This document shows positions 2,772 to 44,845 of a stretch of 44,855 nucleotides of DNA, piece after piece. Within the stretch, counting starts at the first letter, position 1. Every line of letters starts with the position of its first letter. Source of the DNA: a phage; NCBI GenBank assembly GCA_012164735.1, contig GCA_012164735.1_4544.1; one strand, given 5' to 3'. The notes under the pieces were generated by a model. It saw only the letters and a list, made by a program, of their open reading frames with translations, ran no database searches and had not been told where the DNA came from. The position numbers and the translations under genes were made by a program.

Positions 2772-2843
2772 ATTCTGCGCGCATTGGTTGCCATTTTGAG
2801 TGTTTTTATCCAGTCGCATTGGTTGCCGTGTAGTGTAAATATA

Positions 2844-3049
2844 GTGAATAGTTATGCAGTTTTATTGCATAAACTAAGCGGGACAAAAAGCGGGACAAAC
2901 AAGGGGCGGGACAAAGCGGGACAGCACCCCAGTCCCGCCCCGGATGGCGCGGCTTCCGGAGGAGCGGGACAGCGGGACAGCACCCCAGTCTTTCAGACTA
3001 GACGGGGGTCAGCGGCCCCCCTCGTCTGAGACTGAATAAAATCCGGAGA
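2844..3049. repeat. Copy 1 of a ~206-bp duplicated non-coding element: GCGGGACA iterons (direct at 2878, 2890, 2906, 2916, 2964, 2972; inverted at 2932) plus a 67-bp imperfect palindrome (2983-3049)
   Basis: Direct comparison with 20071-20276; immediately downstream of the primase-helicase gene. Confidence 0.8.
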
Positions 3050-3251
3050 TTGCAAAATACACGGCAGCATGATGCGAAGTGCGGTCATGGATGAACTAGG
3101 CAACCAATGCGGGTTGTATTATGCTGAGTGAAAAATGCGGTTTGCAGTTGCAGCAGATAGCGATCAACTTTTTCATACGCATGATTAATATTGGTTGCAT
3201 TCAGCCTAGCACCCTGCTAGATTGGTTGCACACCAACATGAGGACTGAACA

Positions 3252-3557
3252 ATGAGAGCATTAATCTGGAAATACTCACGGGCCATAGCGAAGCTGGACG
3301 AAGCGAAAAACACAAACGGCAACGTAGACTATGCGCGCCAGTTTGCGGCACGGGCACACCAACACATCATGAGTGCGCTCGACGATATGGACGCCAGCAT
3401 GGATGACCTGGGTCCGCTGCGTAAGGCTATCCATGAATACGCGCTGGCATTCTCCCGTGAGCGCCTGGCCTATCGCTTCGGTATTGGCGATAAGGCAGTG
3501 ACAAACGTCGCCCGGATTAAAGCACAGCGCGAACTATTCGCCCAGCTTGCGAAATAA
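3252..3557 (+). CDS. Hypothetical protein
   Basis: 101-aa ORF with RBS gagga 8 nt upstream. Confidence 0.5.
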   Translation: MRALIWKYSRAIAKLDEAKNTNGNVDYARQFAARAHQHIMSALDDMDASMDDLGPLRKAIHEYALAFSRERLAYRFGIGDKAVTNVARIKAQRELFAQLAK

Positions 3558-3566
3558 GGGGCCAAA

Positions 3567-3836
3567 ATGGGCCGTAGACGAGCTAATCAGCTTTCTTGGC
3601 ATATTCCCCTGCATTGCATACGAATATGGGCTAAGAACGCGATTGAGGGCGATTCCGTGTACTGGTGCTATCGCGACGATGTGAAGCCACTTACGCAGAC
3701 TCGCTACTTGCACCAGTTCGCAGCACAACATGGTTTCTATGTGCGGACTTCCTTGCAACCAATGGGAATACGTATTACATTACGCCGGAAGCCCGCCGTT
3801 GAGCGGGTAGGCAAACACTGGAGACTGAGCAAATGA
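3567..3836 (+). CDS. Hypothetical protein, probable diverged member of a tandem paralog family (C-terminus ERVGKHWRLSK)
   Basis: 89-aa ORF; RBS aagggg; 3' junction ctggagactgagcaaATGa duplicated at the next gene boundary. Confidence 0.4.
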   Translation: MGRRRANQLSWHIPLHCIRIWAKNAIEGDSVYWCYRDDVKPLTQTRYLHQFAAQHGFYVRTSLQPMGIRITLRRKPAVERVGKHWRLSK

Positions 3837-4177
3837 TTCGAGTAACCGCACGCCGCGAACAATCGGGGGCCACTTACGATGTAATCGACGTTCGCGGCGC
3901 GTTCGTCATCTTCGGACGGGGTGACGACCGGCTGGCGCTGCCGATCGGTATGCTGAGCACATACGACTATTTCAAGCATAACGTCCGGTGTGGCGATGTG
4001 CTGCGCGATAAGCGCACCGGTGAGCTATGGACGGTGGCGAGTATTTGGGTGAAAGATAAACGGCAGCACACGTTATTGCTCGCCCGCCCGGATTGCAAAC
4101 AGCAAACTATTAACACTATTGGCCTGGTGGACTACACCCGCGTAGGCCGTAACGCTACCTGGAGACTGAGAAAATGA
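3833..4177 (+). CDS. Hypothetical protein, tandem paralog family (GDVLRD ... LWTV ... VDYTRVGR motifs)
   Basis: 114-aa ORF; ATGA start/stop overlap with upstream gene; shares motifs with 4174-4746. Confidence 0.55.
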   Translation: MIRVTARREQSGATYDVIDVRGAFVIFGRGDDRLALPIGMLSTYDYFKHNVRCGDVLRDKRTGELWTVASIWVKDKRQHTLLLARPDCKQQTINTIGLVDYTRVGRNATWRLRK

Positions 4178-4746
4178 AATTACTATTCCGCCGTAAATCA
4201 GATGGCTATATCCTGAAGCCGATCCAGACCTTATCGAACTGGGTACGCCTCCACCACGTTGCAAGCGATAAAGTCTGGTGGGCGACTAAGGCAAAGCTGC
4301 CGGAGTACTACGAAATCCTCACACACGATATCGAGCACGGCGATGTGCTGCGTGATATTCGCGACGGGCAGTTGTGGGTCGTGGAATACACCTACCGGCA
4401 CGGCCTGCGTATGACGTCCCGCAAGGATGGCGTAGCGGGCAACATGGTCAAGGGCATGACGTACTTCGGGCTAATCAACTACGAACGAGTGGGCCGCAAG
4501 TACAGCAAGCGTGACCACCAGCCACATGAGCGCGTTGATTTCCGCAAGTCCCAGCCGGAATATGCGACCTACGACGCAAGCAAAGCGCAGGGTGCTATTC
4601 GCCAGGCCGCACATGAAATCGTCAATCGCTTTGATGCCGTGGCGAACGCCCAGCGCATGGCCCGTGACTACGGCGTGGCTTTCATCCGCGTGGAATACGA
4701 CGGCAGCATTACCGCAGTTCACCCGCAGAAGATTATCCAGAAATGA
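4174..4746 (+). CDS. Hypothetical protein, tandem paralog family (GDVLRD ... LWVV ... INYERVGR motifs) with C-terminal extension
   Basis: 190-aa ORF; ATGA overlap with upstream gene. Confidence 0.55.
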   Translation: MKLLFRRKSDGYILKPIQTLSNWVRLHHVASDKVWWATKAKLPEYYEILTHDIEHGDVLRDIRDGQLWVVEYTYRHGLRMTSRKDGVAGNMVKGMTYFGLINYERVGRKYSKRDHQPHERVDFRKSQPEYATYDASKAQGAIRQAAHEIVNRFDAVANAQRMARDYGVAFIRVEYDGSITAVHPQKIIQK

Positions 4747-4883
4747 GTGCGACTATCCGGGATATGCTCATGCATAACCGCTTTGAGATAGGCGGGCGAG
4801 TGTTCTGCAATTACTTCGTGGCGCGTGCTTTGGCGCGCCATATCGGAAAACCAGAAGGGGAAATACGATGCTACACGATTTGA
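4743..4883 (+). CDS. Small hypothetical protein (46 aa), translationally coupled
   Basis: ATGA overlap with upstream stop; not in ORF track because under 60 aa; hand-translated. Confidence 0.3.
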   Translation: MSATIRDMLMHNRFEIGGRVFCNYFVARALARHIGKPEGEIRCYTI

Positions 4884-5155
4884 TATATTGGTTTGGTTTG
4901 GCCTGCGGACTATGCCTGATTACGGCGGTGCTGGGCGCAATATGGGTATTCCTGGTATGGCCTGCGATGGAAGCTGCCAGCATTACCCGGATGACGTTCC
5001 AGATATACAAGCGCCGAGGCATAACGGAACACCCGACCAGGTTGCGCATGTGGTGGCTATGGTATCTGGATATGATTGGGGGCCGAAGGTTTGAGGCCGT
5101 CCGGTCATCCGGGTGGGAATGGAAAGGCGTAGGCAAGTGGTCCATTTTCGATTAA
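4868..5155 (+). CDS. Small membrane protein (hydrophobic N-terminus)
   Basis: 95-aa ORF, RBS aagggg, predicted TM segment LIYWFGLACGLCLITAVLGAIWVFLVW. Confidence 0.4.
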   Translation: MLHDLIYWFGLACGLCLITAVLGAIWVFLVWPAMEAASITRMTFQIYKRRGITEHPTRLRMWWLWYLDMIGGRRFEAVRSSGWEWKGVGKWSIFD

Positions 5156-5172
5156 ATATGCAAGCGTGATAT

Positions 5173-5207
5173 AGTCCCAGTGAGCTAAAACTTACTGGGA
5201 CTTTTTT
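5173..5207 (+). terminator. Rho-independent terminator
   Basis: Stem agtcccagt/actgggact with 12-nt loop followed by T5-6. Confidence 0.55.
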
Positions 5208-5498
5208 ATGGATAAGCTAAACGAGTGGTTATTCGCCCTCGCGTGTCTTGCAGGTGGCTTCGTTGGCGCTCGCATTCACGGGGAGGCAACGAAAGGGCCG
5301 CTAAACTTTGTGTTGTTTATCGTGGTCGGCTTCTTGTGTGCCGTGTTCGGTGCACCGGCTATTGCTGAGTGGTTTAATCTAACCGGACCGAGAACGGTTG
5401 CCGGTCTTGGCTTCGTTACTGCCATCTTCTGGATGCCGGTAGCTGCCAGAATCCGAGAAGCAATTTCCTCGTTCCGTCTGCCGGGGGGTGCAAAATGA
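5208..5498 (+). CDS. Holin candidate (multi-TM small membrane protein)
   Basis: 96 aa, several hydrophobic segments; directly upstream of second membrane protein and the endolysin. Confidence 0.45.
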   Translation: MDKLNEWLFALACLAGGFVGARIHGEATKGPLNFVLFIVVGFLCAVFGAPAIAEWFNLTGPRTVAGLGFVTAIFWMPVAARIREAISSFRLPGGAK

Positions 5499-5737
5499 TT
5501 ATCGCCATCCTGTTATTAGTGATCGGGGCTTCGTCGCTGTATAACGTATACGCGCCATCCGTCCAGGATGGCATTTGCGGACGGGTGCTCTACTTGCTTA
5601 CAGCAATGACCTGTATTATTGGCCTGATGCAAACGGGGGACGTATCGAATACAGTCTGGTCCGTGCTAATCTGGCTATTCGCATTGCGCACGCTGCGTAA
5701 TGCGGTTTTAAATGGGGTAAAACATGCGATTCAGTGA
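5495..5737 (+). CDS. Holin/antiholin candidate (small membrane protein)
   Basis: 80 aa, two hydrophobic segments, overlaps neighbours by 4 and 14 nt. Confidence 0.45.
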   Translation: MIIAILLLVIGASSLYNVYAPSVQDGICGRVLYLLTAMTCIIGLMQTGDVSNTVWSVLIWLFALRTLRNAVLNGVKHAIQ

Positions 5738-6215
5738 CAACGGTCTAAGATTTACGGCAGCCTGGGAGTCATTCAGCCCGGTGCCGTATTTCGCGACTAA
5801 GAAAGAGCAGGCCCGCGGCCTGTATACCTGGGGCTATGGTCATACTGGCACTAATCCGCCGCGGAGCATTACCCGCGCGGAAGCGCTGGATCTACTCAAG
5901 CGTGATGTGGCGTATGCTGAGAACTGGGTGAACAAGTACGCGCATTCGAGTATCAATCAGGCGCAATTCGACGCGCTGGTGGACCTGGTAATCAATGCCG
6001 GTCAGGGTCCAATCGTACCGGACAACATTGCCAACGACTTCGATGACGCGGTGCGCCTGGGTGACTGGGCGAAAGTCCGTGCTACACTGCCACAATTCCG
6101 CAAGCAAGGCGGTGAAGTGCTCAAGGGTCTGGTCCGTCGTGCAATCGGCAGACAGGCGCTATTCGATGGTAAGCAGTGGGACGTTGCCGAGAAAATCGGG
6201 CGTAACGCAGCATAA
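5724..6215 (+). CDS. Endolysin, lysozyme-like (GH24-type glycosidase)
   Basis: 163 aa; E ... GLYTWGYGHTG resembles T4-lysozyme-type catalytic Glu plus GYGH motif. Confidence 0.7.
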   Translation: MRFSDNGLRFTAAWESFSPVPYFATKKEQARGLYTWGYGHTGTNPPRSITRAEALDLLKRDVAYAENWVNKYAHSSINQAQFDALVDLVINAGQGPIVPDNIANDFDDAVRLGDWAKVRATLPQFRKQGGEVLKGLVRRAIGRQALFDGKQWDVAEKIGRNAA

Positions 6216-6230
6216 TACGAGGAACACAGT

Positions 6231-6398
6231 ATGTTAAAAAGCATTCTTGATCATAACGCGGACGCGCTTGCCGCACTGGCTAAAACCGAAGACCCAGGCG
6301 CACGCGCCATTATCGCGGACACAATCAGTCATGCGGGTGTCTTTGACGCGAAGCTGCCAAGCCCGCCACCGCCGGAAGAACCAGGCCCAGCGGCCTAA
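6231..6398 (+). CDS. Small hypothetical protein (55 aa, Pro-rich C-terminus)
   Basis: RBS gagga 7 nt upstream; followed by terminator; hand-translated. Confidence 0.35.
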   Translation: MLKSILDHNADALAALAKTEDPGARAIIADTISHAGVFDAKLPSPPPPEEPGPAA

Positions 6399-6404
6399 CC
6401 ACGC

Positions 6405-6430
6405 AAGCCCGGCTAATGTCGGGCTTTTTA
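6405..6430 (+). terminator. Rho-independent terminator
   Basis: Stem aagcccg/cgggctt, loop 8 nt, T-run. Confidence 0.55.
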
Positions 6431-6494
6431 TTGCTTGACTTGCAACCAACACAGAGGCCATACTGCAACCAATCAACGAGAGGAGTAACACACT

Positions 6495-6575
6495 ATGACA
6501 CGCAATGATATTTATGTACTGGCAATCTGGTCCGCCGCCGCATTCATCGGTATGGTTATTTGCGAATTGCTATAG
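6495..6575 (+). CDS. Candidate micro-ORF encoding a 26-aa hydrophobic peptide
   Basis: Strong RBS gagaggag 7 nt upstream of ATG; sequence MTRNDIYVLAIWSAAAFIGMVICELL; downstream of paired GCAACCAAT motifs. Confidence 0.3.
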   Translation: MTRNDIYVLAIWSAAAFIGMVICELL

Positions 6576-6636
6576 CCCGCCGCCATAGGGACCGTGGTAT
6601 ATTGTCCCCGGACCCATAATCAGGAAGTAAATTAAT

Positions 6637-7779
6637 ATGCACCCTCAAACTAAAATTACCGACGAGCAATTGATCGCTGAATTGCAATCTGGCACTACCT
6701 CGAAAGATATTGCGAAGAAATACGGCATTGCCCTTCGAAATGTCTATATGCGCAAAGCCCGCCTGTCGAAGAAAGGCATTGGACACGGCAACGATGCTGT
6801 AATCCGCAAGCGCGTTGCCGATGGCTTCGGCGTTAAGCGTGTATCAGCCCTGGTGCGCGGCAATGGCGAAGAGGTCATGTCCTGGGTCATCACCGAGCAG
6901 GACAAGGAGCGCCAACTTGAAGCAATGCGCGCCGTTGTCGAGGGTATGAACAGCGAAATCACACCGGCAGCACCAGTGAGCGCTCCGCCAGTCCCGATCC
7001 AGGCGCTTGACCTGCTTAACCTGTATACCGTGTCAGACTTCCACCTGGGAATGTTGGCGTGGGGCGAGGAGACTGGCGAGGACTGGGATATGGCAATCGC
7101 CGAAGACCTTTTTTACCGCTGGTTTGTCGAAGCCTTCGCCCGCGCGCCGGACGCTGGCACTGCTGTAATCAATATCCTCGGTGATATGGCCCACTTTGAC
7201 AGCCTTGACGCCGTCACGCCAGCCAGTGGTCACGTACTGGATGCCGATACCCGCTACCAGAAGTTGGTCCGCTACATGATTCGCATGGTGCGCAACGTGG
7301 TTGAACTGGCGCTGCAAAAACACCATAAGGTCAAACTGCTAATCGTCCAGGGTAATCATGATGAGTCCGGTATGATTTGGCTGGCTGAAATGTTCAATAC
7401 CCTGTACGAGAACGAGCCACGCGTCGATGTTGACACGTCACCTGACGTCTACAAAATGGTGCAGCACGGTAAGACAACGCTGTTCTTCCACCACGGACAC
7501 AAGGCACGCTTTGACGCCATCGAACCGGTCATGATTTCTAAATTCAGACAGGCTTTCGGGTCCAGTGAGTACAGCTACGCGCACGTAGGCCACTTGCACC
7601 ACCAGAAGATTGTTGAATCCCGCAACATGATTGTTGAACAGCACCGGACCCTTGCCGCGAAAGACGCATACGCAAGCCGCGGCGGTTGGATGTCCGGTCG
7701 CAGTGCAAACGTCATCACCTATAGCGCCAACTACGGCGAAGTAGCGCGCTTAACCATTAGCCCGGAAATGTTGAAATGA
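6637..7779 (+). CDS. Metallophosphoesterase (Mre11/SbcD-like motifs) with N-terminal HTH-like region
   Basis: 380 aa; motifs VSDFHLG, ILGDMAHFD, VQGNHDE, HHGHK typical of calcineurin-like phosphoesterases; RBS aggaag. Confidence 0.6.
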   Translation: MHPQTKITDEQLIAELQSGTTSKDIAKKYGIALRNVYMRKARLSKKGIGHGNDAVIRKRVADGFGVKRVSALVRGNGEEVMSWVITEQDKERQLEAMRAVVEGMNSEITPAAPVSAPPVPIQALDLLNLYTVSDFHLGMLAWGEETGEDWDMAIAEDLFYRWFVEAFARAPDAGTAVINILGDMAHFDSLDAVTPASGHVLDADTRYQKLVRYMIRMVRNVVELALQKHHKVKLLIVQGNHDESGMIWLAEMFNTLYENEPRVDVDTSPDVYKMVQHGKTTLFFHHGHKARFDAIEPVMISKFRQAFGSSEYSYAHVGHLHHQKIVESRNMIVEQHRTLAAKDAYASRGGWMSGRSANVITYSANYGEVARLTISPEMLK

Positions 7780-7988: not shown

Positions 7989-7995
7989 CCCTCCC

Positions 7996-8021
7996 AGCCC
8001 GCCGATTTGGTGGGCTTTTTT
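7996..8021 (+). terminator. Rho-independent terminator
   Basis: Stem agcccgcc/ggtgggct (one G-U), T6. Confidence 0.5.
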
Positions 8022-8026
8022 GTGCC

Positions 8027-8035: not shown

Positions 8036-8105
8036 CCCCCTTAGATGGCTGGGCCGTCTCCTATGTTGCCGATGGTCGGCGCATATGCATAAAAGGGCTT
8101 ATATC

Positions 8106-13108: not shown

Positions 13109-13873
13109 TTATCGCGGAATACCGCAAATCTCGTTGAGAGTTTTCACATCCAGCGCCACCGCCGTGGATTTTGGCTTGTCCGGGTATGGGATGAATTGCT
13201 CAACTTCAGGCCATGCCTTAATCAGCTTTTTGTCAGTATTGTGCAGATCCAGCACACCGGTAACGGTGAGTTTGAACGCATCATACTTCGCGCGCAACTC
13301 GCGACGGGCCTTGTCGTTACGGTCCAGGCGCTTACAGAAGTCGTGGTCTGCCGGGTAGTCCGCGCGACAGCGCGGCTTATAGATCGGCAGCGCTTTCCCG
13401 TCCTCGTCCACTTCGCACACAGAAGCCAGCATTACTTCTTCGTACCCTGGTACAATATCGCCGAGATCGGGAGATAGCTTATTCATGTATTTATATTCCC
13501 AGTATCCGCGATGTACTCGGTATTGTCGTCCGTCGCCGCTCAATGACAGTGTGCGCACATTTCCGCCTGCGTTGATTTCGAAAGTGGCGTCGTAAACGCT
13601 GCCGATGCCTTTTGGGCGGTCAGCGTTATAACTATACGTCGCCTTGTTGGTGTATACGCTTACTCCGTACATCTGCGACGGGTTATCGCCGATTGCTTTA
13701 ATGCGCGCGAGTAGCTCGGCGAAAGTGCGAATGCCTTCCGGCATACAGTCCAGCGTAATGGCGTACGCCAGGTCGCGCGAGTCCATCATGATGGATTTGG
13801 CTTCGGTCGCGATTTCATGGTCGCGCAGGATGTTAGCCAGAATCCGGTTTTTAATGTCTTTCGTCAGTCTCAT
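13109..13873 (-). CDS. Hypothetical protein (254 aa) encoded opposite to the structural operon
   Basis: ATG with RBS gagga; no recognisable domain by inspection. Confidence 0.6.
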   Translation of the reverse strand: MRLTKDIKNRILANILRDHEIATEAKSIMMDSRDLAYAITLDCMPEGIRTFAELLARIKAIGDNPSQMYGVSVYTNKATYSYNADRPKGIGSVYDATFEINAGGNVRTLSLSGDGRQYRVHRGYWEYKYMNKLSPDLGDIVPGYEEVMLASVCEVDEDGKALPIYKPRCRADYPADHDFCKRLDRNDKARRELRAKYDAFKLTVTGVLDLHNTDKKLIKAWPEVEQFIPYPDKPKSTAVALDVKTLNEICGIPR

Positions 13874-13916: not shown

Positions 13917-14324
13917 TTAAAGTGCTTCGAGAATCTCGTAAAACTTATTCGCCAGCGCCTGGCGTCGTTCGAATTTTTCAGTGATAACCAATTCCGGGCG
14001 GTTAAATAGCTTTGCGTGGGTGTTCCAATTGAGGATTTCCGTTTCCATTATTTTCTTCCTGTTGTAATCGGTGTTTTTGATGCTGAATTCCTTGATAGCG
14101 TTATTAAGAAAATCAGTCATACACTCAACGTCTGTTCTCTTAACTTCGAACGTACGGGCCTCGATTGGGCTATTTGTGCGAAGTACGACGACTCCGCCGT
14201 GGTAGGTGTCGACTACCATATACTTATAAGTCACCCCATCCCACTCCGGGTCGAAAGGGCGCCCAAATACGTCGTCGGCTTTCCATACTTTCTGGTACGG
14301 TGTTTCTTTGATTAATGTTGGCAT
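13917..14324 (-). CDS. Hypothetical protein (136 aa), start moved to internal ATG 14324 with RBS aaggaa
   Basis: N-terminal 151 codons of the ORF-track call are low-complexity antisense of the scaffold gene; RBS precedes MPTLIKE. Confidence 0.5.
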   Translation of the reverse strand: MPTLIKETPYQKVWKADDVFGRPFDPEWDGVTYKYMVVDTYHGGVVVLRTNSPIEARTFEVKRTDVECMTDFLNNAIKEFSIKNTDYNRKKIMETEILNWNTHAKLFNRPELVITEKFERRQALANKFYEILEAL

Positions 14325-14352
14325 CTTGTTTTCCTTCATATCTCTGTTGGTG

Positions 14353-14375
14353 TGCAACCAATATATGCAACCAAT
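14353..14375 (+). promoter_or_regulatory. Paired TGCAACCAAT motifs (14353-14362, 14366-14375) in a divergent intergenic region
   Basis: Two perfect 10-mers 13 bp apart. Confidence 0.5.
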
Positions 14376-14414
14376 ACGAGGATTGCAAGCGAATTTTGCG
14401 ATTATTTTTATCGC

Positions 14415-14423
14415 TGATAATAT
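14415..14423 (+). promoter_or_regulatory. Extended -10 promoter candidate (TGaTAATAT) preceded by TCGCTGATA, upstream of scaffold and capsid genes
   Basis: Same TCGCTGATA-extended -10 arrangement recurs at 20281-20293. Confidence 0.35.
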
Positions 14424-14478
14424 TAGAAGCGTGAAGTCGAGCGGGTGGCCTGCTCTGCCACAATCCCAGGGGGATAGC

Positions 14479-19949: not shown

Positions 19950-20276
19950 GCGGGACAGGCGGGACGTCCCGTTTTGTCCCGCCACAATTAAACCGCATAT
20001 ATACTCACTTTCATTGCATAAACTAAAAGCGGGACAGGGGAGCTGTCCCGATCTGTCCCGCACCCAAAATGTGAATATCTATTCAGTTTTCGTGCATAAA
20101 GTAAGCGGGACAAAAAGCGGGACAGAATGAGGCGGGACAAAGCGGGACAGCACCCCTGTCCCCGTCAGTGCTGCCGCGGGTTTTAGCCGATCGGGACTGG
20201 CGGGACAAACCCCAGTCTTTCAGACTAGACGGGGGTCAATGGCCCCCCTCGTCTGAGACTGAATAAGGTTTGTTTT
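19950..20276. repeat. Copy 2 of the duplicated element and additional iterons: GCGGGACA direct at 19950, 19959, 20029, 20105, 20117, 20132, 20142, 20200; inverted at 19975, 20044, 20054; 67-bp palindrome at 20210-20276
   Basis: Counted directly; 20071-20276 aligns with 2844-3049. Confidence 0.8.
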
Positions 20277-20284
20277 AAATTCGC

Positions 20285-30407: not shown

Positions 30408-30487
30408 GTTATCATCTCCTATATTTGGTTGAGTTTTAGTATTACACCGCTCGATCAAGAATGCAACCAATTTATGAGGATTTAGCT

Positions 30488-32885: not shown

Positions 32886-33407
32886 TTATTTCAGTGCGCC
32901 AGTCACCAGTGTTTTTTCCATGTTGCGGAAGTCTTCCGGCGTCATGAGGATTTTGGAACCGTCTTCGCCAGTGAGCACGACCATAGGCTGGACTTCTTGA
33001 TCTACCACACCGAAATTAGCGGCTTTAACATTCTTACCCGCAGATGACGAAGGATGCCACGTCCCTGCGGTGGCGATGGGCCAACCTTTAAGGCTATCGT
33101 ATTGCGCTGCCGTCGTATCGACCTGAATCTCATCATGAACGGTCATGTAAGACTCGCCCAGCAAGGCCGCATACGCTACCAGGTCGACGATGTTATCTTC
33201 CTGGTGCTTACGGTGCTGGCGCACCAGCTTCAGGCAGATCAGGAATGTCCAGGCTTCTTGCTCGGTAAGATCGCGCCCGGTAAGCGCGTTAAACACGGCG
33301 GCGATCTGTTTAGCGCTGCGTTCTTCTTTCGCGTTGTCATAGCCGTTTTCTTTCCCGCGCTGTTCCATAGTGGTGGCGGCGTTTTTGCAGTATTCGTATG
33401 CTTTCAT
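32886..33407 (-). CDS. Hypothetical protein (start at ATG 33407)
   Basis: 173 aa; RBS aagga; ORF-track N-terminal extension rejected. Confidence 0.45.
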   Translation of the reverse strand: MKAYEYCKNAATTMEQRGKENGYDNAKEERSAKQIAAVFNALTGRDLTEQEAWTFLICLKLVRQHRKHQEDNIVDLVAYAALLGESYMTVHDEIQVDTTAAQYDSLKGWPIATAGTWHPSSSAGKNVKAANFGVVDQEVQPMVVLTGEDGSKILMTPEDFRNMEKTLVTGALK

Positions 33408-33459
33408 TATGTTTTCCTTTTTAGTGGGGGCGGTATTGCCCCCGACGTGATTAAGATAC

Positions 33460-33481
33460 TGCAACCAACCTATTGGTTGCA
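33460..33481. promoter_or_regulatory. Palindromic motif pair TGCAACCAA-cct-ATTGGTTGCA
   Basis: Inverted repeat of the recurring 9-mer. Confidence 0.5.
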
Positions 33482-33940
33482 AGTGAATTTTGCAACGTTT
33501 ATCGCATAAATTTTCGGGACTAGATCGCCGCACGCCCGACGAATTGCCGCGATGTTCTTCTCGCAATCTTCAATGATGACCAGTTCCGACACGTCAGCAT
33601 AGCAGACCATTTTGAACACGGCGCACGCCTTAAACTCTGGCGGCGGGGTGTCGTCCAGCATGTGGCGCATAAACAACCGGCCTGTCGGGAATACTTCCAG
33701 TTGTTCGGCGGTGGTGTCCCAACATTCTCGCTGCCGGTTTGTCAGATACGCGATCTCGAAGCCTTGCGCTTTATACATGCGCAACAGCGGCAGCATATCC
33801 ATGTTCAGATCTTCGCGTGTATGCGCTTTGTGCCACTTCGCCCAAAAGGTGGATTTAGTTTTTATGTCAGGCACCAGGTCGGCACGCGCATCGCTTGAAC
33901 CGTTAATAACGCCATCCAAATCGCAAATCAGTAATTTCAT
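33470..33940 (-). CDS. HAD-superfamily phosphatase-like protein
   Basis: N-terminal LLICDLDGVI (DxDG motif I). Confidence 0.5.
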   Translation of the reverse strand: MKLLICDLDGVINGSSDARADLVPDIKTKSTFWAKWHKAHTREDLNMDMLPLLRMYKAQGFEIAYLTNRQRECWDTTAEQLEVFPTGRLFMRHMLDDTPPPEFKACAVFKMVCYADVSELVIIEDCEKNIAAIRRACGDLVPKIYAINVAKFTCNQ

Positions 33941-34161
33941 TTTAAGCTCTCAATAAGGGTCTGTCGGGCGCTTCGCGCAGTAACGGAGTTGCATACGAAA
34001 TGGCAACGCTGAGTCATGACAAGCCAACCGGTGAGGTCAAGGCCCATGATGCGTCCTGGACAAGACGCGCGCACCACATGATTGCGCCGCGGGTCAATGC
34101 CGTAGTCTTTTTGCATTTGGTTTACGACCGCCGGGTCGCGGTCAACGATTAAGATATTCAC
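33937..34161 (-). CDS. Small hypothetical protein (GTG start with strong RBS aaggag)
   Basis: 74-aa ORF overlapping upstream gene end. Confidence 0.35.
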   Translation of the reverse strand: MNILIVDRDPAVVNQMQKDYGIDPRRNHVVRASCPGRIMGLDLTGWLVMTQRCHFVCNSVTARSARQTLIESLK

Positions 34162-34627
34162 GCAATTCTCCTTCGCTCATTATTTCAATTTGTGCGCTGC
34201 CGATGGGCGGCGCTTCGTCAAATATTATTAATTGCTGGCACTTGTTATTGCTCGGCCCGACTTCACCGGTGACTGCATGTATGAATCGGATCCGCCAGTC
34301 CAGAAGAATTATCAGATTTGCAGTCTTCCGGGCCAGCTTCGCCCACTTCGTCGACGTGTCCTGATTCAGTAGCATGACGGTCCGACGGCCATGCGCTGCG
34401 CACTCAACCCACGGCAGCGGATCGGAATATGGCGGGTTGCACCATTTCCACCCTTTCAACTCGGACCAGTCAGCATCAAGCGCGCTGTGCTCCGCAGTGA
34501 AGTAACGCGGTAGCAGGTGGTTGGTGTCGCTTGCCGCCATATCGTAACGGAATCGGTATTTCCGGCGCAGTGGTTTAAATAAAGCTGGCGGCGTGCGCCA
34601 GCTATCTTTTTGCTCACTCTTCGTCAT
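34142..34627 (-). CDS. DNA N6-adenine methyltransferase (phage Dam-like); start uncertain (34627, 34645 or 34654)
   Basis: WCNPPYSD motif IV; W ... TPP near N-terminus. Confidence 0.7.
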   Translation of the reverse strand: MTKSEQKDSWRTPPALFKPLRRKYRFRYDMAASDTNHLLPRYFTAEHSALDADWSELKGWKWCNPPYSDPLPWVECAAHGRRTVMLLNQDTSTKWAKLARKTANLIILLDWRIRFIHAVTGEVGPSNNKCQQLIIFDEAPPIGSAQIEIMSEGELREYLNR

Positions 34628-35078
34628 TCTGCGGGTCCAGTGCATATAGGGCAATCTTTTCGTATTTGCCGACTATGCGATGCACGCGCTTTGCGTCCTC
34701 TTCACTACGTGGGCGCGCATCCGTGTAGTAGCTACCAGTTTGAGTATTGTGCCACGCCATAAGCACCAAATCTTTCCGGGCGATCGAAGACTGGCGGCCC
34801 TTCGGACGCACGTACTCCTCCGCACGTTTACAGTGCTCCCGCAACGCATCGGCAGTGATGCGGTTTAGTGCAACGCTGGTGGTGTATCCGGTGCGCTGCA
34901 TAATCCCCATCAGTTCGAAAAGCAGTTCGAAGCGCTCCTCTAACTCCATGCGGCGCTTTTCTTCCGTTTCATAGCTTGACAGGTAGGTATCTGCCAGCGC
35001 GCTGACGCGTTCTGCCTGTTCGCGGGCTTCGAGGCATTGCGCGGCCCAGTAGTTTTTCTCTTCTTGTAAAATTTTCAT
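34614..35078 (-). CDS. Hypothetical protein
   Basis: 154 aa, RBS ggaga. Confidence 0.45.
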   Translation of the reverse strand: MKILQEEKNYWAAQCLEAREQAERVSALADTYLSSYETEEKRRMELEERFELLFELMGIMQRTGYTTSVALNRITADALREHCKRAEEYVRPKGRQSSIARKDLVLMAWHNTQTGSYYTDARPRSEEDAKRVHRIVGKYEKIALYALDPQNDEE

Positions 35079-35098
35079 CGTGTTGTCTCCGGGTATTA

Positions 35099-35127
35099 AA
35101 AAGGGCGTCCAAACCGGACACCCTCAA
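35099..35127 (-). terminator. Minus-strand intrinsic terminator lying between paired motifs and the next start codon
   Basis: rc: gggtgtcc ggttt ggacgccc then TTTTTA. Confidence 0.45.
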
Positions 35128-35132
35128 TATAA

Positions 35133-35159
35133 TGCAACCAATATGACTATGCAACCAAT
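35133..35159. promoter_or_regulatory. Paired TGCAACCAAT motifs (35133-35142, 35150-35159); on the minus strand they give TTGCAT - 17 nt - TATATT
   Basis: Two perfect 10-mers; hexamers read by eye. Confidence 0.45.
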
Positions 35160-38085: not shown

Positions 38086-38364
38086 CTACGCGACCAATTC
38101 AGCAACCAATAAATCGCAGTCGGCTATGTTGTCGATAACACGAACGTCCGCACCGCGGCGGGCCATTCGCTCATGTTCACGTACCTGGTGCGGCTTCGGC
38201 TTTCCTCCGGGGCGCTTCACTTCGACGAACACTATTTTGCCGTTGATGATAATAATCAGGTCGGGCGCACCCGCGCGCCCCTCCCATGCCATTTTGCGGC
38301 AGAATCCGCCGACCTCTTTCACCCGTTTCATCAGGTGACTTTGAATCTTGCCTTCTGGTGTCAT
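38086..38364 (-). CDS. VRR-NUC domain nuclease
   Basis: 92 aa; GAPDLIII ... FVEVK core. Confidence 0.6.
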   Translation of the reverse strand: MTPEGKIQSHLMKRVKEVGGFCRKMAWEGRAGAPDLIIIINGKIVFVEVKRPGGKPKPHQVREHERMARRGADVRVIDNIADCDLLVAELVA

Positions 38365-41015: not shown

Positions 41016-41030
41016 TTTTCATTGTCCTAT

Positions 41031-41054
41031 TAAAAAGCCCGCATTAAGCGGGCT
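41031..41054 (-). terminator. Minus-strand intrinsic terminator downstream of the SSB-like gene
   Basis: rc: agcccgc ttaat gcgggct then TTTTTA. Confidence 0.55.
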
Positions 41055-41073
41055 TGAATAGTGGGCTTTGCCC

Positions 41074-41856
41074 TTAACGGCGGCGACGTTTACGTGGCGC
41101 TTCGTCTTCGTCGTCGTCCTCATCTTCGTCATCGCGTGGCTTACGACGTTTGCGAGGTTTTTCATCTTCCTCATCGTCGTCGTCATCGCGGCGCTTGGAT
41201 TTCTTGGACTTGCGCGGCTTGTCATCTTCATCATCGTCATCACGACGTTTTGACTTTTTGGACTTGCGCGGTGCTTCGTCTTCGTCGTCGTTGTCCAGGT
41301 CTTCATCGGAGCAAGAAGACCCGCCACCTCCGAAGGCTTCGCCGTCTTCACGGAATCGCAGACCCAGCAAGCCAGCCCCGAGACCCTTGCCGTTGGTATT
41401 GTTCCATGCCCAAATATCAAGGGACACGTTGCAATAACAACCGGAGTAGATCTCCTGGCCTTCAATCTCGTCGCCGTCGATGGTCAGACCTTGTTCAGTC
41501 TGCTTCTCGCCGAGTGACGTTTGAATGATTGGTTGTTTGAACGATTTGGCGTTGATATACAACATGCCTTCGAATTCTTCGGTTACTTCATCGCGCTCGT
41601 CGCCGTCGCGAACTGCACATTCCTTAGAATCCTGGGCGTAGTGGCGGTCCATCCACTTATCGGCATTCTTCTCGGATTTCAGCTTATCGGTGAGCACTGC
41701 GCGCGCTGCCGCTTCCACTTTATCCACCTGCGGATCTTCTTTATCCAGAAGAATCACGGCACGGTATGCCGGTTTTTGTCCATCCTGTTTAGGGGTATCA
41801 CGTTCCCAAATTTTCAGGAAGCATACGCGCACATTTTTCAGGTTGACTTTAGCCAT
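41074..41856 (-). CDS. Single-stranded DNA-binding protein-like (phage SSB-type fold) with long alternating basic/acidic repeat C-terminal tail
   Basis: MAKVNLKNVRV ... YSGCYCNVSLDIWAWNN ... FGGG core; C-terminus of PRKSKKSKRRDDDD-type repeats; RBS gagga. Confidence 0.55.
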   Translation of the reverse strand: MAKVNLKNVRVCFLKIWERDTPKQDGQKPAYRAVILLDKEDPQVDKVEAAARAVLTDKLKSEKNADKWMDRHYAQDSKECAVRDGDERDEVTEEFEGMLYINAKSFKQPIIQTSLGEKQTEQGLTIDGDEIEGQEIYSGCYCNVSLDIWAWNNTNGKGLGAGLLGLRFREDGEAFGGGGSSCSDEDLDNDDEDEAPRKSKKSKRRDDDDEDDKPRKSKKSKRRDDDDDEEDEKPRKRRKPRDDEDEDDDEDEAPRKRRRR

Positions 41857-41911
41857 TTTCCAATTCCTCATTTTCACATGTATCGGGGTTATTGTGAGCC
41901 ACCCCGTCCGG

Positions 41912-41936
41912 CTTGGTTGCTAATCTACTTGGTTGC
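41912..41936. promoter_or_regulatory. Paired CTTGGTTGC motifs (41912-41920, 41928-41936) upstream of the SSB-like gene
   Basis: Two copies 16 bp apart. Confidence 0.45.
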
Positions 41937-41946
41937 GCCTGAGCGG

Positions 41947-42189
41947 TCAAGCATTTTCATTAAAAAGATTTCTGGTAACGTAGTTGGTAGCGTTCTCGAT
42001 CCAGCTTAACGGCGGGCGGTCGCCATGTCTCGCGATCCACGCCACGGCAATGGTGCTGTATCCATCGTCCAGCCAGCGGGTCGGATGGCGAATCATCCAC
42101 GCCACCATTAACACGCCTTGCACGCAATGCAGGATAAAGCCCAGCGCTCCGAGCAAAAACATCAATAAGATTGCGAATACTTTATTCAT
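41947..42189 (-). CDS. Small membrane protein
   Basis: 80 aa; two hydrophobic segments; RBS gagga. Confidence 0.4.
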   Translation of the reverse strand: MNKVFAILLMFLLGALGFILHCVQGVLMVAWMIRHPTRWLDDGYSTIAVAWIARHGDRPPLSWIENATNYVTRNLFNENA

Positions 42190-43612
42190 TGCTTAAGTCC
42201 TCGTCAGTAGCTTCCGACCACGCAGGGCGCGGGTCGTCGATTGGTGCTAACACCGGTTTGGCAGGTGCGCGCGTGATTTTATCACACAGCTTCGCCCACA
42301 CTTTCGGTTTTTCGTCCTTCAGTACCTTCTCGGCATCCGTAGGGCTGAGCAATGTTTCTTTGTACATCACATCGCGCTTGATCCTGGCCTTCGTGAAGAT
42401 TTCAATCACTTCGCTCTCGTCCGCCCACTTGCGGATTCCTTCCTTACCGGCAACCATCTTGAGGCCCAGCGATTCGCCATCACCAGCCATTACGGCCTTG
42501 AATACCGCGGACTCGATAGCCTTGATGTGCTGGCGCATTGCGTCAAGACCTTCATATGCCTTGCGCAGTTCCGCGGCGGTCATAGCGCCGGGGGCCGCTT
42601 CTTTCTTGCCACGCTTCGCACGTCGGGCCGCCTTCCGGGCTTCGCGGGCCATATTGCGGTCGTGATTGGCGCATTCTTCCTCGGTCGCCACGCTCACGTC
42701 GTCGCCCAGGTCTTCGTCGGTTGCCGTTGGAGGTGTCATCGTGTCGATTGCGGCTTTAGCGCGGGCACTACACTGATCCGCAAATCGACACCACTGGCAC
42801 GCATCAACGCTGGGCCGGAAGTCTGCGCGGGTGAGTCCCTTCTTGCCTCGGGAATACGCCTCCAGTGCGGCAATAGCGCGCTTGGATGCAAACTTCGCGA
42901 ATATCTCCAGCGCTTCTACCGAAATATCCCACTCCGACGCCCCGCCGCAATACGGCTGGAAGATAACCAGGCGCACGGTCGTGATGTCGTACATGGATTG
43001 CAGCTTGCGCAGCAGGCCTAGCGCGTACAACATAAGCTGTTTGTTTTCTTTCGCCTCGACCTTATGCCGCCCCGTCTTCAGGTCGCCAACAATCAGCATG
43101 TACGTGCCGTCGGTCTTCTTCATGACCATGACCATATCCGCAGTCCCGAACGTCTTAACCCGGTTGCCGTCGATCTCGAAGCCCGAGTGTAGGACGCGGG
43201 TAAGATCGGCGCGCATCTCAAGCTGAACAAACTCCGCCACTTCGAGGAGCGGTCGCCAGTGGTCGATGTACGCGTCGCACTGTTTCACCATGTCGTCGTT
43301 GACCAGTACGCCGCCTTTCGGTGCTTTCGGGTGTGCCTTTACTGGCCCCTTACCTTCGTTCTCGACGTAACACCCTTTGTACGTCTTGGCGGTTATCAGC
43401 TTTTCCCCGGCAATGATGCGGTTGAGCACTACCTCTGATACGGTGTGCATACTCGTACCGTTAATAGCCGCTTGCCCGGATTCGTTCGGGATACCTTGTT
43501 CTACCACCAGGGCGGCAGGGCAACCCATCCATTTTTTAGCACCGGACGGCCCGAGTAATGAGTGTTCGGTATTGCTACCGGATTGCGTCTTACGTTTTGG
43601 TTTAATCGCCAT
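42182..43612 (-). CDS. PD-(D/E)xK exonuclease (Cas4/RecB-nuclease-like, with Cys cluster) carrying a C-terminal extension
   Basis: N-terminal HSLLGPSGAKKWMGCP; CQWCRFADQC cluster; 476 aa. Confidence 0.6.
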   Translation of the reverse strand: MAIKPKRKTQSGSNTEHSLLGPSGAKKWMGCPAALVVEQGIPNESGQAAINGTSMHTVSEVVLNRIIAGEKLITAKTYKGCYVENEGKGPVKAHPKAPKGGVLVNDDMVKQCDAYIDHWRPLLEVAEFVQLEMRADLTRVLHSGFEIDGNRVKTFGTADMVMVMKKTDGTYMLIVGDLKTGRHKVEAKENKQLMLYALGLLRKLQSMYDITTVRLVIFQPYCGGASEWDISVEALEIFAKFASKRAIAALEAYSRGKKGLTRADFRPSVDACQWCRFADQCSARAKAAIDTMTPPTATDEDLGDDVSVATEEECANHDRNMAREARKAARRAKRGKKEAAPGAMTAAELRKAYEGLDAMRQHIKAIESAVFKAVMAGDGESLGLKMVAGKEGIRKWADESEVIEIFTKARIKRDVMYKETLLSPTDAEKVLKDEKPKVWAKLCDKITRAPAKPVLAPIDDPRPAWSEATDEDLSNE

Positions 43613-43800
43613 TATTCCACCCTTGTAAACTGAGCAATGTAATAATCGTGTTCAACATTGGCCCGCTTAGCGGCATTGTTCATGGTGGCCGCCAGTCCTC
43701 GGGCTTGCATCCAGCAGCAATTCCAGTTTTGATTCATAACAATTTCCGGTTGCTCGTCGCCGGTGATACGGCAACGAAATAAAACAAAGAATATAGCCAT
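43612..43800 (-). CDS. Small hypothetical protein
   Basis: RBS gggaga. Confidence 0.35.
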   Translation of the reverse strand: MAIFFVLFRCRITGDEQPEIVMNQNWNCCWMQARGLAATMNNAAKRANVEHDYYIAQFTRVE

Positions 43801-44052
43801 TTATTTCGTCTCCCAGCGGTCAATCGTTCTTGCTTCGGATGCAACCGCAAAGCGAACATATTCCAGATTGGAGTCCGCCCAAATATAAAAGTCGGGGTTA
43901 GTAAAGGTGGTGCGCTTAATTTGCGCGGGCGTGTTACGGCGTTTATCTATTACGGCAACGCGGGATTGAAAGCTGCCGATGCGTTCGAATAGCCAATAAT
44001 AAGGGCGCTGGTCGCGGGAATCCACCGCCTCGATTAGCGTGAATCGTGCCAT
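43801..44052 (-). CDS. Hypothetical protein
   Basis: 83 aa, RBS gagga, directly after a terminator. Confidence 0.4.
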   Translation of the reverse strand: MARFTLIEAVDSRDQRPYYWLFERIGSFQSRVAVIDKRRNTPAQIKRTTFTNPDFYIWADSNLEYVRFAVASEARTIDRWETK

Positions 44053-44055
44053 TGT

Positions 44056-44082
44056 CTCGTCCTCTAAAAAGAGGCCCGCAGA
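44056..44082 (-). terminator. Minus-strand intrinsic terminator between the first and second early genes
   Basis: rc: ggcccgc taatct gcgggcc then TCTTTTT. Confidence 0.55.
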
Positions 44083-44100
44083 TTAGCGGGCCGGAATATA

Positions 44101-44619
44101 TTAATCTTCCAGTTCGAAATAGGTTTCGACGATTTCTTTTAACTCTGTGTGGAAGTCTTCGACGTCGTCATCTTCCAGCTTGGCGATTGATTTGATCTCG
44201 AACGATTCCAGCAGGTCGTCGAATTCGTCGTTCGCATCGTCGTCATCACCACCGGCGATAATCGCGGCATACTGTTTGATTTCGTCGCGCATCTCCGCCA
44301 GCGGATCGGCATCTTTCTTACCTTTGCCTTTCGCCGGTGCTTTTTTAGCCTTAGCCGGTTTTTCGTCTTCGGCTTCTTCGTCGTCGTCATCTTCTACGAC
44401 TTCTTTTTTGGCCTTACCTTTCGCCGGTGCTTTTTTAGATTTAGCCGGTTTTTCGTCTTCAGCTTCATCGTCGTCATCTTCGACAACTTCTTTTTTGGCC
44501 TTAGACGGCTTCTTGTCTTCCTGTTTACCAACGGCAGCGCCAACGGTTTCATAATGCTTTGCAATGGTTTCCAGTGCTACTACGCCGCGAGTGATCAGGT
44601 TTACGATTTGCTCAAACAT
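44101..44619 (-). CDS. Highly acidic protein with two ~34-aa tandem repeats (start at ATG 44619); first gene of the minus-strand block
   Basis: RBS ggag; KKEVVEDDDDE ... KPAK ... KKAPAKGK repeated twice; ~100-bp DNA direct repeat 44320-44520. Confidence 0.55.
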   Translation of the reverse strand: MFEQIVNLITRGVVALETIAKHYETVGAAVGKQEDKKPSKAKKEVVEDDDDEAEDEKPAKSKKAPAKGKAKKEVVEDDDDEEAEDEKPAKAKKAPAKGKGKKDADPLAEMRDEIKQYAAIIAGGDDDDANDEFDDLLESFEIKSIAKLEDDDVEDFHTELKEIVETYFELED

Positions 44620-44814
44620 GGTATATCTCCGATTGGTTAAGTTTAGGTGTCGGCAGTTAACTTCGTCGGTGGCCTTAACATATTGCCAGGTTACGCGTTC
44701 TCCCGTTCGGGTAGTGGACCTGGTTATATAATCACGGTTGGGAATCCTGACACTTCGATCCGGCCCCTGCGTTGCCCCTCTCCAGTTTGCGTCCTGCATC
44801 CTGTCGACGGAGTG

Positions 44815-44845
44815 AATGATAGATTGGTTGCAGGATAGGTGTCAA
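44815..44845 (-). promoter_or_regulatory. Candidate promoter for the minus-strand block (TTGACA - 18 nt - TATCAT), with ATTGGTTGCA motif in the spacer
   Basis: Hexamers read on the minus strand; motif at 44823-44832. Confidence 0.35.

Follow-up and report, generated by a model that had tools for sequence, protein, structure and literature searches.

What is one short word doing at the start of so many transcription units of a virulent phage? The question is raised by a stretch of 44,855 nucleotides (contig GCA_012164735.1_4544.1 of the GenBank assembly GCA_012164735.1; the whole of it is called the window below), in which the 10-bp word TGCAACCAAY, read on one strand or the other, lies at nearly every predicted early or middle promoter and around a probable replication origin. 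The complete genome of a Dhillonvirus, a virulent siphophage of E. coli, makes up the window in circularly permuted form, since its end (…CTAATTT) runs on, in relatives, into the A-run that opens it, and since its 44,855 bp match the size of Dhillonvirus genomes. By megablast its first 25 kb are about 90-92% identical to at least 150 Dhillonvirus genomes, including SECphi18, YD-2008.s, SO-1 and HK578.

The answer that we prefer, and to which we would give a probability of about 0.55, is that the word is a dispersed asymmetric operator, read by one protein, which mainly represses sigma-70-type early and middle promoters; its TTGCAW part can be used as a -35 element, and further copies form arrays at the origin. 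The motif itself is previously undescribed in the literature that we searched, but the kind of element is familiar. Searches with the motif strings and for Dhillonvirus, HK578, Jersey-like phages and eiAU brought up no description of it, and it goes unmentioned in the BASEL and eiAU papers. Phage-therapy and anti-phage defence work (BASEL, SECphi, Tmn) makes use of Dhillonviruses and their relatives, which are common coliphages, and gene regulation in the group is essentially undescribed. A word of this kind offers a map of the transcription units.

An over-represented and conserved word

The window holds 15 exact copies of ATTGGTTGC/GCAACCAAT, counted on both strands, against a mean of 0.50 (maximum 4) in dinucleotide-preserving shuffles (n = 100), none of which reached 15. 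The over-representation reported in a first-pass annotation of this DNA therefore stands against a shuffled background, and composition as its explanation is ruled out. With up to one mismatch there are 27 matches, and 12.5 are expected. The core 10-mer ATTGGTTGCA/TGCAACCAAT, with 11 copies, is the commonest 10-mer of the genome, and the aligned copies favour a T ahead of GCAACCAAT. Enrichment starts only at 7-mers, hence neither base composition nor a short sub-word can explain it. Five one-mismatch copies (6442, 33461, 38090, 41912 and 41928) each adjoin another copy at 11-23 nt, and for this reason we count them as true members, which brings the motif to about 20 copies in all (Table 1). 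The remaining one-mismatch matches (9345, 16836, 18521, 25006, 36257, 41528 and 43520) are unpaired and about as numerous as chance would give.

All of the positions that the first-pass annotation had listed are real to within 1 nt, the offset arising because it sometimes counted the conserved preceding T. The list was short of two copies, the exact one at 3755-3763 and the one-mismatch one at 38090-38098. Its description of the copies as mostly intergenic agrees with the annotation of close relatives, by which 13 of the 15 exact copies are intergenic (binomial P = 8.6e-12). The exceptions are 3755 and 38102, the latter lying, as had been proposed, within the 3' end of the VRR-NUC gene (open reading frame, ORF, 38086-38364). 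Two further ORFs of a simple gene calling, 3121-3255 and 34969-35154, with three sites inside them, are spurious by the same annotation of relatives.

The copies stand in both orientations at about 11 loci, singly and in pairs. Pairing had been noticed before; the start-to-start spacing within pairs is 11-35 nt, slightly wider than the 13-31 bp first given. The 10-mer is asymmetric. A palindrome had been described at 33460-33481 and it is indeed there, as the single true two-copy palindrome, and a second half-site at N5 accompanies two copies only. ATTGGT-N5-ACCAAY inverted repeats occur at three places in the window.

How well is the word kept? When the window, SECphi18, SO-1 and HK578 are compared, variation affects 12 of the 171 motif columns and 190 of the 845 columns of the flanks (Fisher P = 6e-7), and most of those 12 come from one replaced segment of SECphi18. 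At 14320-14420 the upstream flank is wholly replaced in two genomes, and the site pair and what lies downstream of it are intact. Two of the Dhillonviruses space this pair (14354/14367) at 13 nt and the other two at 14 nt, which means that the sites need no strict helical phasing.

Beyond the genus, TGCAACCAAY is over-represented in Edwardsiella phage eiAU-183 (15 copies of GCAACCAAC and five of GCAACCAAT), in Klebsiella phage VLCpiS11a (ten and two, respectively) and in Serratia phage Tsm2 (12 copies of GCAACCAA); GCAACCAAC is the top 9-mer in the first, the third in the second and outside the top 12 in the last. The core is identical in phages of five host genera (Escherichia, Sodalis, Klebsiella, Serratia and Edwardsiella), which makes it useful for annotation. 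The motif is absent from the Salmonella phages Jersey, GRNsp27 and vB_STM-ZS, from Hafnia phage TS33, from the Kagunavirus Golestan and from T1. VLCpiS11a and Tsm2 have a motif-free sister clade, and by helicase-primase similarity the motif-free genomes form one clade. The 31 IMG/VR loci found via the helicase-primase carry either 4.0-7.3 copies per 10 kb or 0-1.1 (motif-free loci longer than 7 kb). A scan of IMG/VR for pairs of TTGGTTGC yielded chiefly chance matches and coding repeats of collagen-like type (G-N-Q), and is uninformative on distribution.

The DNA around the sites in the other genera can no longer be aligned with the window. In Tsm2 four copies lie within the helicase-primase coding sequence, and the adjacent pair that was checked, 9373 and 9386, is in different reading frames. 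Both facts argue that selection acts on the DNA word. Its placement is orthologous as well. A two-site promoter in the 3' end of the VRR-NUC gene, before the Lar-like gene, is shared, position included, by the window, VLCpiS11a and eiAU-183, and the promoter of the SSB gene carries a site in the same three phages (in VLCpiS11a it is in the spacer). The comparison with related phages that the first-pass annotation had proposed as a check thus finds sites kept while flanks vary, and kept at orthologous places across genera.

Could the word have no function at all, being an artefact of composition or the remnants of a short mobile or duplicated element? Some copies do share duplicated contexts (TGTTGGTGTGCAACCAAT at 3221 and 14345, and the stretch that follows 14376 and 33478). 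Flanks are unrelated at most sites, however, no shuffle reaches the count, and sites are kept at orthologous promoters in DNA that is otherwise unalignable, so that the shuffles, the column comparison and the cross-genus results effectively refute this suggestion. A role at the level of RNA was also considered and set aside: no Rfam family or tRNA was found, and occurrence in both orientations speaks against an RNA motif.

Promoter geometry and the origin-like region

Sigma-70-like hexamers were sought around every copy in five genomes; the promoters discussed here are consensus predictions. A subset of the sites falls within sigma-70-type promoters, of a TTGCAW-N17-(-10) class and a TTGACx class. 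In the former the word supplies the -35 element: RTTGG[TTGCAW] is followed, after exactly 17 nt, by TATAGT, TATATT, TAGATT or AATACT, and the Shine-Dalgarno sequence and start codon of a same-strand gene come 20-60 nt past the -10. Nine sites are of this kind, namely 3190(+), 30471(-), 35159(-) and 38110(-) in the window, 15419, 19000 and 34811 in VLCpiS11a, and 18156 and 42954 in eiAU-183. That the motif provides a TTGCA(T/A) -35-like hexamer in several cases had been remarked in the first-pass annotation, and the remark proves right and general. Around the copies a -10 at a spacer of 16-18 is present at 11 sites, against 2.4 (maximum 8) at random positions, and a -10-like hexamer at offset +28 is present at 9 of 63 sites against a background of 1.6. 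The -10 elements of this class are good (TATAGT five times), and TTGCAT matches TTGACA at three of six positions. A -10-like hexamer also stands directly 5' of GCAACCAA at 12 of the 63 sites; we did not use it as evidence, because it is made in part of the conserved T, because intergenic flanks are AT-rich and because some of these hexamers are antisense to genes.

Elsewhere the word is found in other registers. In P44845, P41950, P6435 and VLCpiS11a 11392 it lies in opposite orientation in the spacer between a consensus -35 and the -10. P44845 is the best promoter match in 29-45 kb, and it and P41950 are the two best there, both with a spacer site. At 3221, 14354, 6465 and 41912, and at VLCpiS11a 15453 and eiAU-183 18116, a copy lies over the -10/+1 region. 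The registers relative to the predicted start are therefore -36, -25, -18 and -5 to +1, with typical pairs at -36/-5, -36/-19, -25/-2 and -17/-1, and pairs usually cover both ends of the core promoter. The association with starts of transcription units that had been claimed for the motif is borne out by these predicted promoters and their same-strand genes. The block of structural genes at 8-29 kb is free of sites except for a leftward two-gene island at 14.3 kb, which is why we take the motif to mark early and middle units. Copies 2783 and 3100 and most of the origin copies of eiAU-183 are without a predicted promoter.

Copies 2783 and 3100 belong to a 480-bp non-coding region directly past the helicase-primase stop, which holds iterons and a long hairpin and is the probable replication origin. 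The GCGGGACA iterons are listed as 'region B' repeats in the GenBank record of SO-1, and they are lineage-specific: Dhillonviruses and one divergent relative have them, and other genera have other iterons. Five motif copies bracket the iterons, with 2783 and 2818 pointing rightward, 3100 leftward, and then 3190 and 3221. The outer three (2783, 2818 and 3100) share the extended form CGCATTGGTTGCC, and 3100 makes a perfect 13-nt inverted repeat with both 2780-2792 and 2815-2827. In the equivalent region of eiAU-183 the word is the dominant repeat, with nine copies in 800 bp (six direct, three inverted), and four further copies lie in a second iteron region upstream of the tape-measure gene. VLCpiS11a, eiAU-183 and Tsm2 all have copies within the 3' end of the helicase-primase gene. 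As in an iteron array, then, repeats occupy a non-coding region that adjoins a putative initiator gene. Since most of the copies near the origin are without a predicted promoter, the protein that reads the word would act at the origin, or mark it, too.

An observation in its own right is that a module of about 200 bp is duplicated in the window with 89% identity, at 2840-3050 and 20070-20280, with GCGGGACA iterons at 2878-2980 and 19950-20207 and a long imperfect hairpin CAGTCTTTCAGACTAGACGGGGGTCA..GGCCCCCCTCGTCTGAGACTG. Of the two, one comes after the helicase-primase gene and one lies upstream of the tape-measure gene; the labels A and B are given to these regions in the SO-1 record. Two origins are one possibility, an origin and some other cis site another.

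What kind of element, and which protein may read it

Several readings can be suggested for this arrangement, and we will begin with the operator that we prefer. TGCAACCAAY would be the recognition site of one sequence-specific protein, a monomer or a flexible oligomer, and the sites would be operators scattered over promoters of the host RNA polymerase (sigma-70-type), most promoters having two copies. At promoters with a weak -35 the TTGCAW of the upstream copy would double as the -35 element (centre at about -36), with the second copy at about -19 or -5. At the strong early promoters with TTGACx, copies in opposite orientation would sit in the spacer (about -25 or -17) and over the start (about -1). 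Occupancy would then shut off or throttle the early and middle units in a Cro-like manner. The same protein may bind the arrays that flank the iterons at the 3' end of the helicase-primase gene, so that origin function would be tied to transcription. The enrichment of the word, its positions and orientations and its conservation inside the genus and beyond are shown; protein binding, repression and the link to replication we infer. A repressor fits here and an activator does not, because a protein on the copy over -10/+1 would block polymerase, and the use of both orientations and several registers is the behaviour of an operator and not of a core promoter or an activator site. The suggestion of a "phage-specific promoter or operator" made in the first-pass annotation hence fits better in its operator half; the promoter half sits less well with both orientations, varying registers and arrays that lack promoters. 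Nor does the word look like the promoter of a phage RNA polymerase, being only 10 bp long and used in both orientations. An RNA polymerase gene is neither annotated in close relatives nor present among the window proteins scanned. The eiAU genome paper reports that there is no phage RNA polymerase and that a phage transcription factor could not be found.

Operators of this sort have precedents, although each known analogue that we will mention fails on at least one defining feature. The C1 operators of phage P1 are likewise asymmetric and dispersed over many loci, single or paired, direct or inverted; they overlap promoters of unrelated operons and their targets include replication functions. 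To that extent TGCAACCAAY is of the P1 C1 type, an asymmetric operator-like word at many dispersed promoters. P1, however, is temperate, its operator is the 17-bp ATTGCTCTAATAAATTT and its repressor C1 is known, whereas here we have a virulent phage and a 10-bp word that doubles as a -35, and a C1-like repressor family is found in none of the window proteins scanned. The Cro/CI operators at PR and PL of Lambda are also small operators over the -35 and -10 of early promoters, and early genes are likely to be turned down there in lytic growth as well. But they are 17-bp pseudo-palindromes in two control regions, whereas the present word, at about 11 loci, is asymmetric and lacks two-fold symmetry; besides, lineages that have the motif in common carry different small HTH (helix-turn-helix) genes in the Cro-like position.

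Some facts weigh against the operator proposal. Its promoters are consensus predictions, and no transcription start site data for Dhillonvirus or relatives were found in the literature searched. With TTGCAT agreeing with TTGACA at only three of six positions, the promoters of the -35 class could need an activator, in which case the -36 copies, if no others, would be activating sites. No promoter is predicted for the copies near the origin, about one third of the total, so transcription control alone cannot explain all copies. Finally, the sole recognisable HTH protein of the genome is lineage-specific, and the XRE-type HTH proteins of other lineages occur in motif-free relatives and have unconserved recognition helices.

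Which protein, then, might read the word? We scanned 30 window proteins against Pfam or PHROGs. The first-pass annotation had pointed to the HTH protein encoded at 167-496 (109 aa), whose C-terminal HTH matches HTH_23 (5.9e-7) and Sigma70_r4_2 (2.3e-6) of Pfam. It is an unlikely binder, because eiAU-183, VLCpiS11a and Tsm2 have no homologue and carry an XRE-type HTH at its position. In Dhillonviruses and the divergent relative it co-occurs with the GCGGGACA iterons, and it is more likely, going by this pattern, to be their binder. The XRE proteins were rejected as well, since motif-free relatives have them and their recognition helices vary among the motif-bearing phages. eiAU gp54 gives a weak HTH_7 match and has no detectable homology to the 167-496 protein. 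No other DNA-binding domain was seen in 20 further window proteins scanned. The word itself may serve as bait in a DNA pull-down of the regulator, and mutation of the sites should deregulate timing, a possible lever for engineering.

An alternative that we regard as unlikely is that the word is an activator or promoter-specificity element at -40 to -31, similar to the MotA box, which would switch on the promoters with a weak -35 and leave the other copies a secondary role. The nine -35-class sites, from three genera, are indeed fixed in orientation and register (RTTGG[TTGCAW]-N17-(-10)); a poor -35 stands next to good -10s; and the genes that follow (Lar-like, SNF2 helicase, methyltransferases, lysis-region genes) are plausible middle genes. 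The T4 MotA box is also a phage-specific word that replaces or occupies the -35 at a fixed distance from a sigma-70 -10. But it has one orientation and one register and needs MotA and AsiA, whereas here orientations and registers are mixed, and no MotA or AsiA homologue was found in the 30 scanned proteins. Nor do the motif-bearing lineages have any MotA, AsiA or sigma-like protein in common. The word also appears in opposite orientation in spacers and over starts of promoters that already have a consensus TTGACx, and most -35-class promoters have a further copy at -19 or -5, a position from which a bound protein would obstruct polymerase. Rather less credit is due to the idea that the word is primarily an origin box, like a DnaA box or iteron, bound by an initiator such as the helicase-primase, with the promoter copies serving autoregulation or transcription-coupled firing; this would be compatible with the operator reading. 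Copies begin at, or within, the 3' end of the helicase-primase gene in each of the four lineages, 13 of the roughly 20 copies in eiAU-183 are in two non-coding regions of iteron type where the word is the dominant direct repeat, and the three extended copies bracket the window iterons as an inverted pair. DnaA boxes, SV40 T antigen sites and P4 alpha iterons are likewise asymmetric 9-10-mers found in origin arrays and promoters in either orientation; the DnaA box TTATCCACA is, however, unrelated in sequence. Yet 15 of the 20 window copies are at dispersed promoters, and region A (19950-20260), the second iteron module, is without one. Presence of the motif does not follow the similarity of the helicase-primase, the candidate initiator, either. 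Its identity to the window protein is 42-45% in the motif-free clade and 46-48% in the motif-bearing eiAU-183 and VLCpiS11a; nine residues separate the motif groups, all of them in the ATPase domain and with the motif-free set being a single clade; and its C-terminal region, the putative DNA-binding part (by its look possibly a winged helix), is barely conserved among motif-bearing genera.

The reader could also be a host protein, a DNA-binding factor common to Enterobacterales that ties phage promoters and origin to the state of the host. This concerns the reader of the word and not its role, and we find it rather improbable. In its favour are the core that is identical across five host genera when no common phage regulator was found, and a resemblance to the half-sites ATTGGT of PdhR, ExuR and LldR (GntR/FadR-type; ATTGGT/ACCAAT) and to the GTTGCA of CytR. 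But most motif copies are lone 10-mers, and these host motifs fit neither the full 10-mer, nor its asymmetry, nor the spacings. The window has N5 where PdhR/ExuR boxes have N2-3 (ATTGGT-N2-3-ACCAAT), the bases after GTTGCA are unconserved where CytR has GTTGCATT octamer pairs, and the conserved TGCA extension is not part of host boxes. Direct 10-mer pairs sought in 100,044 species genomes gave, among the matches listed, no Enterobacterales locus, a weak negative; those matches were scattered over unrelated taxa and one Anaerolineales repeat family. Related phages of the same hosts, moreover, lack the motif. The consensuses of sigma-54, IHF, DnaA, Tus/Ter, NtrC, NarL and the marbox, compared by eye, were tried separately and none fits the conserved positions. 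A switch linked to methylation, in which methylation by the phage Dam of an adenine within or beside the motif would alter promoter or origin activity, seems very unlikely to us. The Dam-type adenine methyltransferase gene, 34142-34654 (-), Pfam PF05869, is downstream of the predicted motif-type promoter P35159. No other window gene has homologues in each of the three further motif-bearing lineages while lacking them in five motif-free genomes; in a set of nine other genomes, drawn from related genera, its presence matches that of the motif; and no other real gene sets VLCpiS11a and Tsm2 apart from their motif-free sister clade. But the motif-free genomes cluster, so that this co-occurrence amounts to about one evolutionary event and deserves little weight; it may simply be shared ancestry. 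With 1754 phage records the family is very widespread, and a distant homologue occurs in T1, which lacks the motif. Its characterised members presumably target GATC, which is absent from the motif. An enzyme of 170 aa is unlikely to read 10 bp, and sub-words are neither enriched nor depleted on their own.

A bolder version of the operator proposal can be entertained, doubtful as we think it: that the word is a single master switch in several virulent siphophage genera, read by a hijacked host protein or by one of unrecognisable fold that would sit on almost all early and middle promoters and on the origin. The switch would couple shut-off to the start of replication, and Dam methylation of newly made DNA might lock it. 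If true, such locking would account for Dam alone among the genes tracking the motif.

Sites and neighbouring features

Table 1. Motif copies, predicted promoters and related features of the window
Feature	Position	Strand	Description
Half-sites, inverted, degenerate	137-153	+	ATTGGTcattAACCAAC, just past P107 -10; membership uncertain
P107	TTGACA 107-112, N17, TAGTTT 130-135	+	Predicted rightward early promoter of HTH and helicase-primase genes
Site	2783-2791	+	ATTGGTTGC, extended CGCATTGGTTGCC; 12 nt past helicase-primase stop; left iteron flank; promoter not found
Site	2818-2826	+	CGCATTGGTTGCC; TTGCCG 2823-2828, N18, AATAGT 2847-2852, weak promoter-like, towards iterons
Iteron cluster	2878-2980	+	Six exact GCGGGACA and degenerate copies
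Site	3100-3108	-	Inverted GGCAACCAATGCG; right iteron flank; promoter not found
Site	3190-3198	+	-35 (TTGCAT 3195-3200) of predicted P3196, N17, -10 TAGATT 3218-3223; upstream of gene 3252-3557
Site	3221-3229	+	Second P3196 site, over -10/+1 (centre about -5); within inverted repeat ATTGGTtgcacACCAAc
Site	3755-3763	-	Exact; inside gene 3567-3836; kept in three other Dhillonviruses
Candidate internal promoter at 3755 site	TTGCAA 3753-3758, N17, TACATT 3776-3781		For gene 3833-4177
Site	6442-6450	-	One mismatch (GCAACCAAC on + strand); in P6435 spacer; just past terminator 6405-6426
P6435	TTGACT 6435-6440, N18, CATACT 6459-6464
Site	6465-6473	-	Abuts P6435 -10, about -6 to +3; upstream of small ORF at 6497 and phosphoesterase gene 6637-7779
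Site	14354-14362	-	Over -10/+1 of leftward P14388; within inverted repeat TTGGTgtgcAACCAA
Site	14367-14375	-	In P14388 spacer
P14388	TTGCAA 14388-14383, N17, TATATT 14365-14360	-	Predicted to drive minus-strand genes 14324->13109
Site	30463-30471	-	-35 TTGCAT 30466-30461, N17, AATACT 30443-30438; Cor-like/membrane-protein genes 30417->29218
Site	33461-33469	-	One mismatch; left arm of palindrome TGCAACCAAcctATTGGTTGCA; in spacer of leftward P33482
Site	33472-33480	+	Right palindrome arm
P33482	TTGCAA 33482-33477, N18, TATCTT 33458-33453	-	Upstream of gene 33410->32886
Site	35134-35142	-	In P35159 spacer; abuts -10 TATATT 35131-35126
Site	35151-35159	-	-35 (TTGCAT 35154-35149) of P35159; upstream of gene 35078->34614 and Dam methyltransferase gene
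Site	38090-38098	-	One mismatch, ATTGGTCGC; in P38110 spacer
Site	38102-38110	-	Exact; within VRR-NUC gene 3' end
P38110	TTGCTG 38105-38100, N17, TATAGT 38082-38077	-	Upstream of Lar-like gene starting 38041
Site	41912-41920	+	One mismatch, CTTGGTTGC; abuts P41950 -10 (about -6 to +3); upstream of SSB/annealing-protein gene 41877->41074
Site	41928-41936	+	One mismatch; in P41950 spacer
P41950	TTGACC 41950-41945, N17, TAGATT 41927-41922	-
Site	44823-44831	+	In spacer of P44845, the strongest predicted promoter
P44845	TTGACA 44845-44840, N18, TATCAT 44821-44816	-	11/12 matches; predicted leftward early promoter of gene 44799->44101

The sites are distributed over a genome of which about 9-10% is non-coding. 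Rightward genes run from 167 to about 32.2 kb (HTH protein, helicase-primase, small genes, lysis, terminase, head, tail), leftward genes from 44.8 to 32.3 kb (recombination and replication genes, methyltransferases), and there are two small leftward islands at 13.1-14.3 kb and 29.2-30.4 kb. The pair 14354/14367, at the start of the first island, is also upstream of the promoter region of the rightward scaffold gene. The degenerate half-sites at 137-153 are kept in SECphi18 and SO-1 and not in HK578.

The duplicated contexts deserve a few more words. Besides the TGTTGGTGTGCAACCAAT already mentioned, 14376-14425 and 33478-33520 share TTGCAAG(C/T)GAATTTTGC…TTTATCGC right after a motif copy. The former is upstream of the scaffold gene; the latter is over the 3' end of a minus-strand gene, to which it would be antisense. 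A promoter module may have been duplicated here. In the interval that separates the divergent early promoters the minus strand has a promoter-like TTGAAA-N17-AATAAT with an upstream TG (93->65), and downstream of it, at 35->1, a strong terminator hairpin with a run of nine T (-16.7 kcal/mol, z = -3.6); such a unit (93->1) could yield a transcript of about 55 nt holding AUUGGUU. At 35100-35123 (-), between P35159 and the start codon at 35078, a terminator-like hairpin GGGTGTCCGGTTTGGACGCCC is followed by TTTTT. It may be the terminator of the upstream unit set after the next promoter, or an attenuator.

Some neighbouring genes are of interest on their own account. The first gene of the leftward early operon, 44101-44799 (-), encodes a protein of PHROG 3127, to which no function is assigned there. 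It consists of tandem Lys/Ala/Pro-rich repeats and strongly acidic stretches (KKEVVEDDDDE…KPAKAKKAPAKGK), a composition that resembles histone H1 or a DNA mimic. Homologues of 13109-13873 (-) and 32886-33410 (-) are annotated or detected in relatives as nucleotide-modification-associated domains, eiAU gp32 matching Nmad5 of Pfam and eiAU gp27 matching DUF6378; this homology hints at modification of DNA bases in these phages.

Other words are over-represented too. The heptamer CGGCARC has 105 copies against about 26 expected, on both strands and mainly within genes (e.g. at 329, 2101, 9535, 18111 and 25030), and the related k-mers ACGGCAGC and AACGGCAGC head the k-mer lists of all relatives, with or without TGCAACCAAY. 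The excess may reflect a codon or peptide bias (N-G-S, T-A-A) or a second signal at the level of DNA. T1 (NC_005833.1) has over-represented words of its own, TAGCACGAATTGCTAAA with 5-6 copies and AACCA(G/A)TCAGGA with about 16, the latter of which may be a conserved translation-initiation region.

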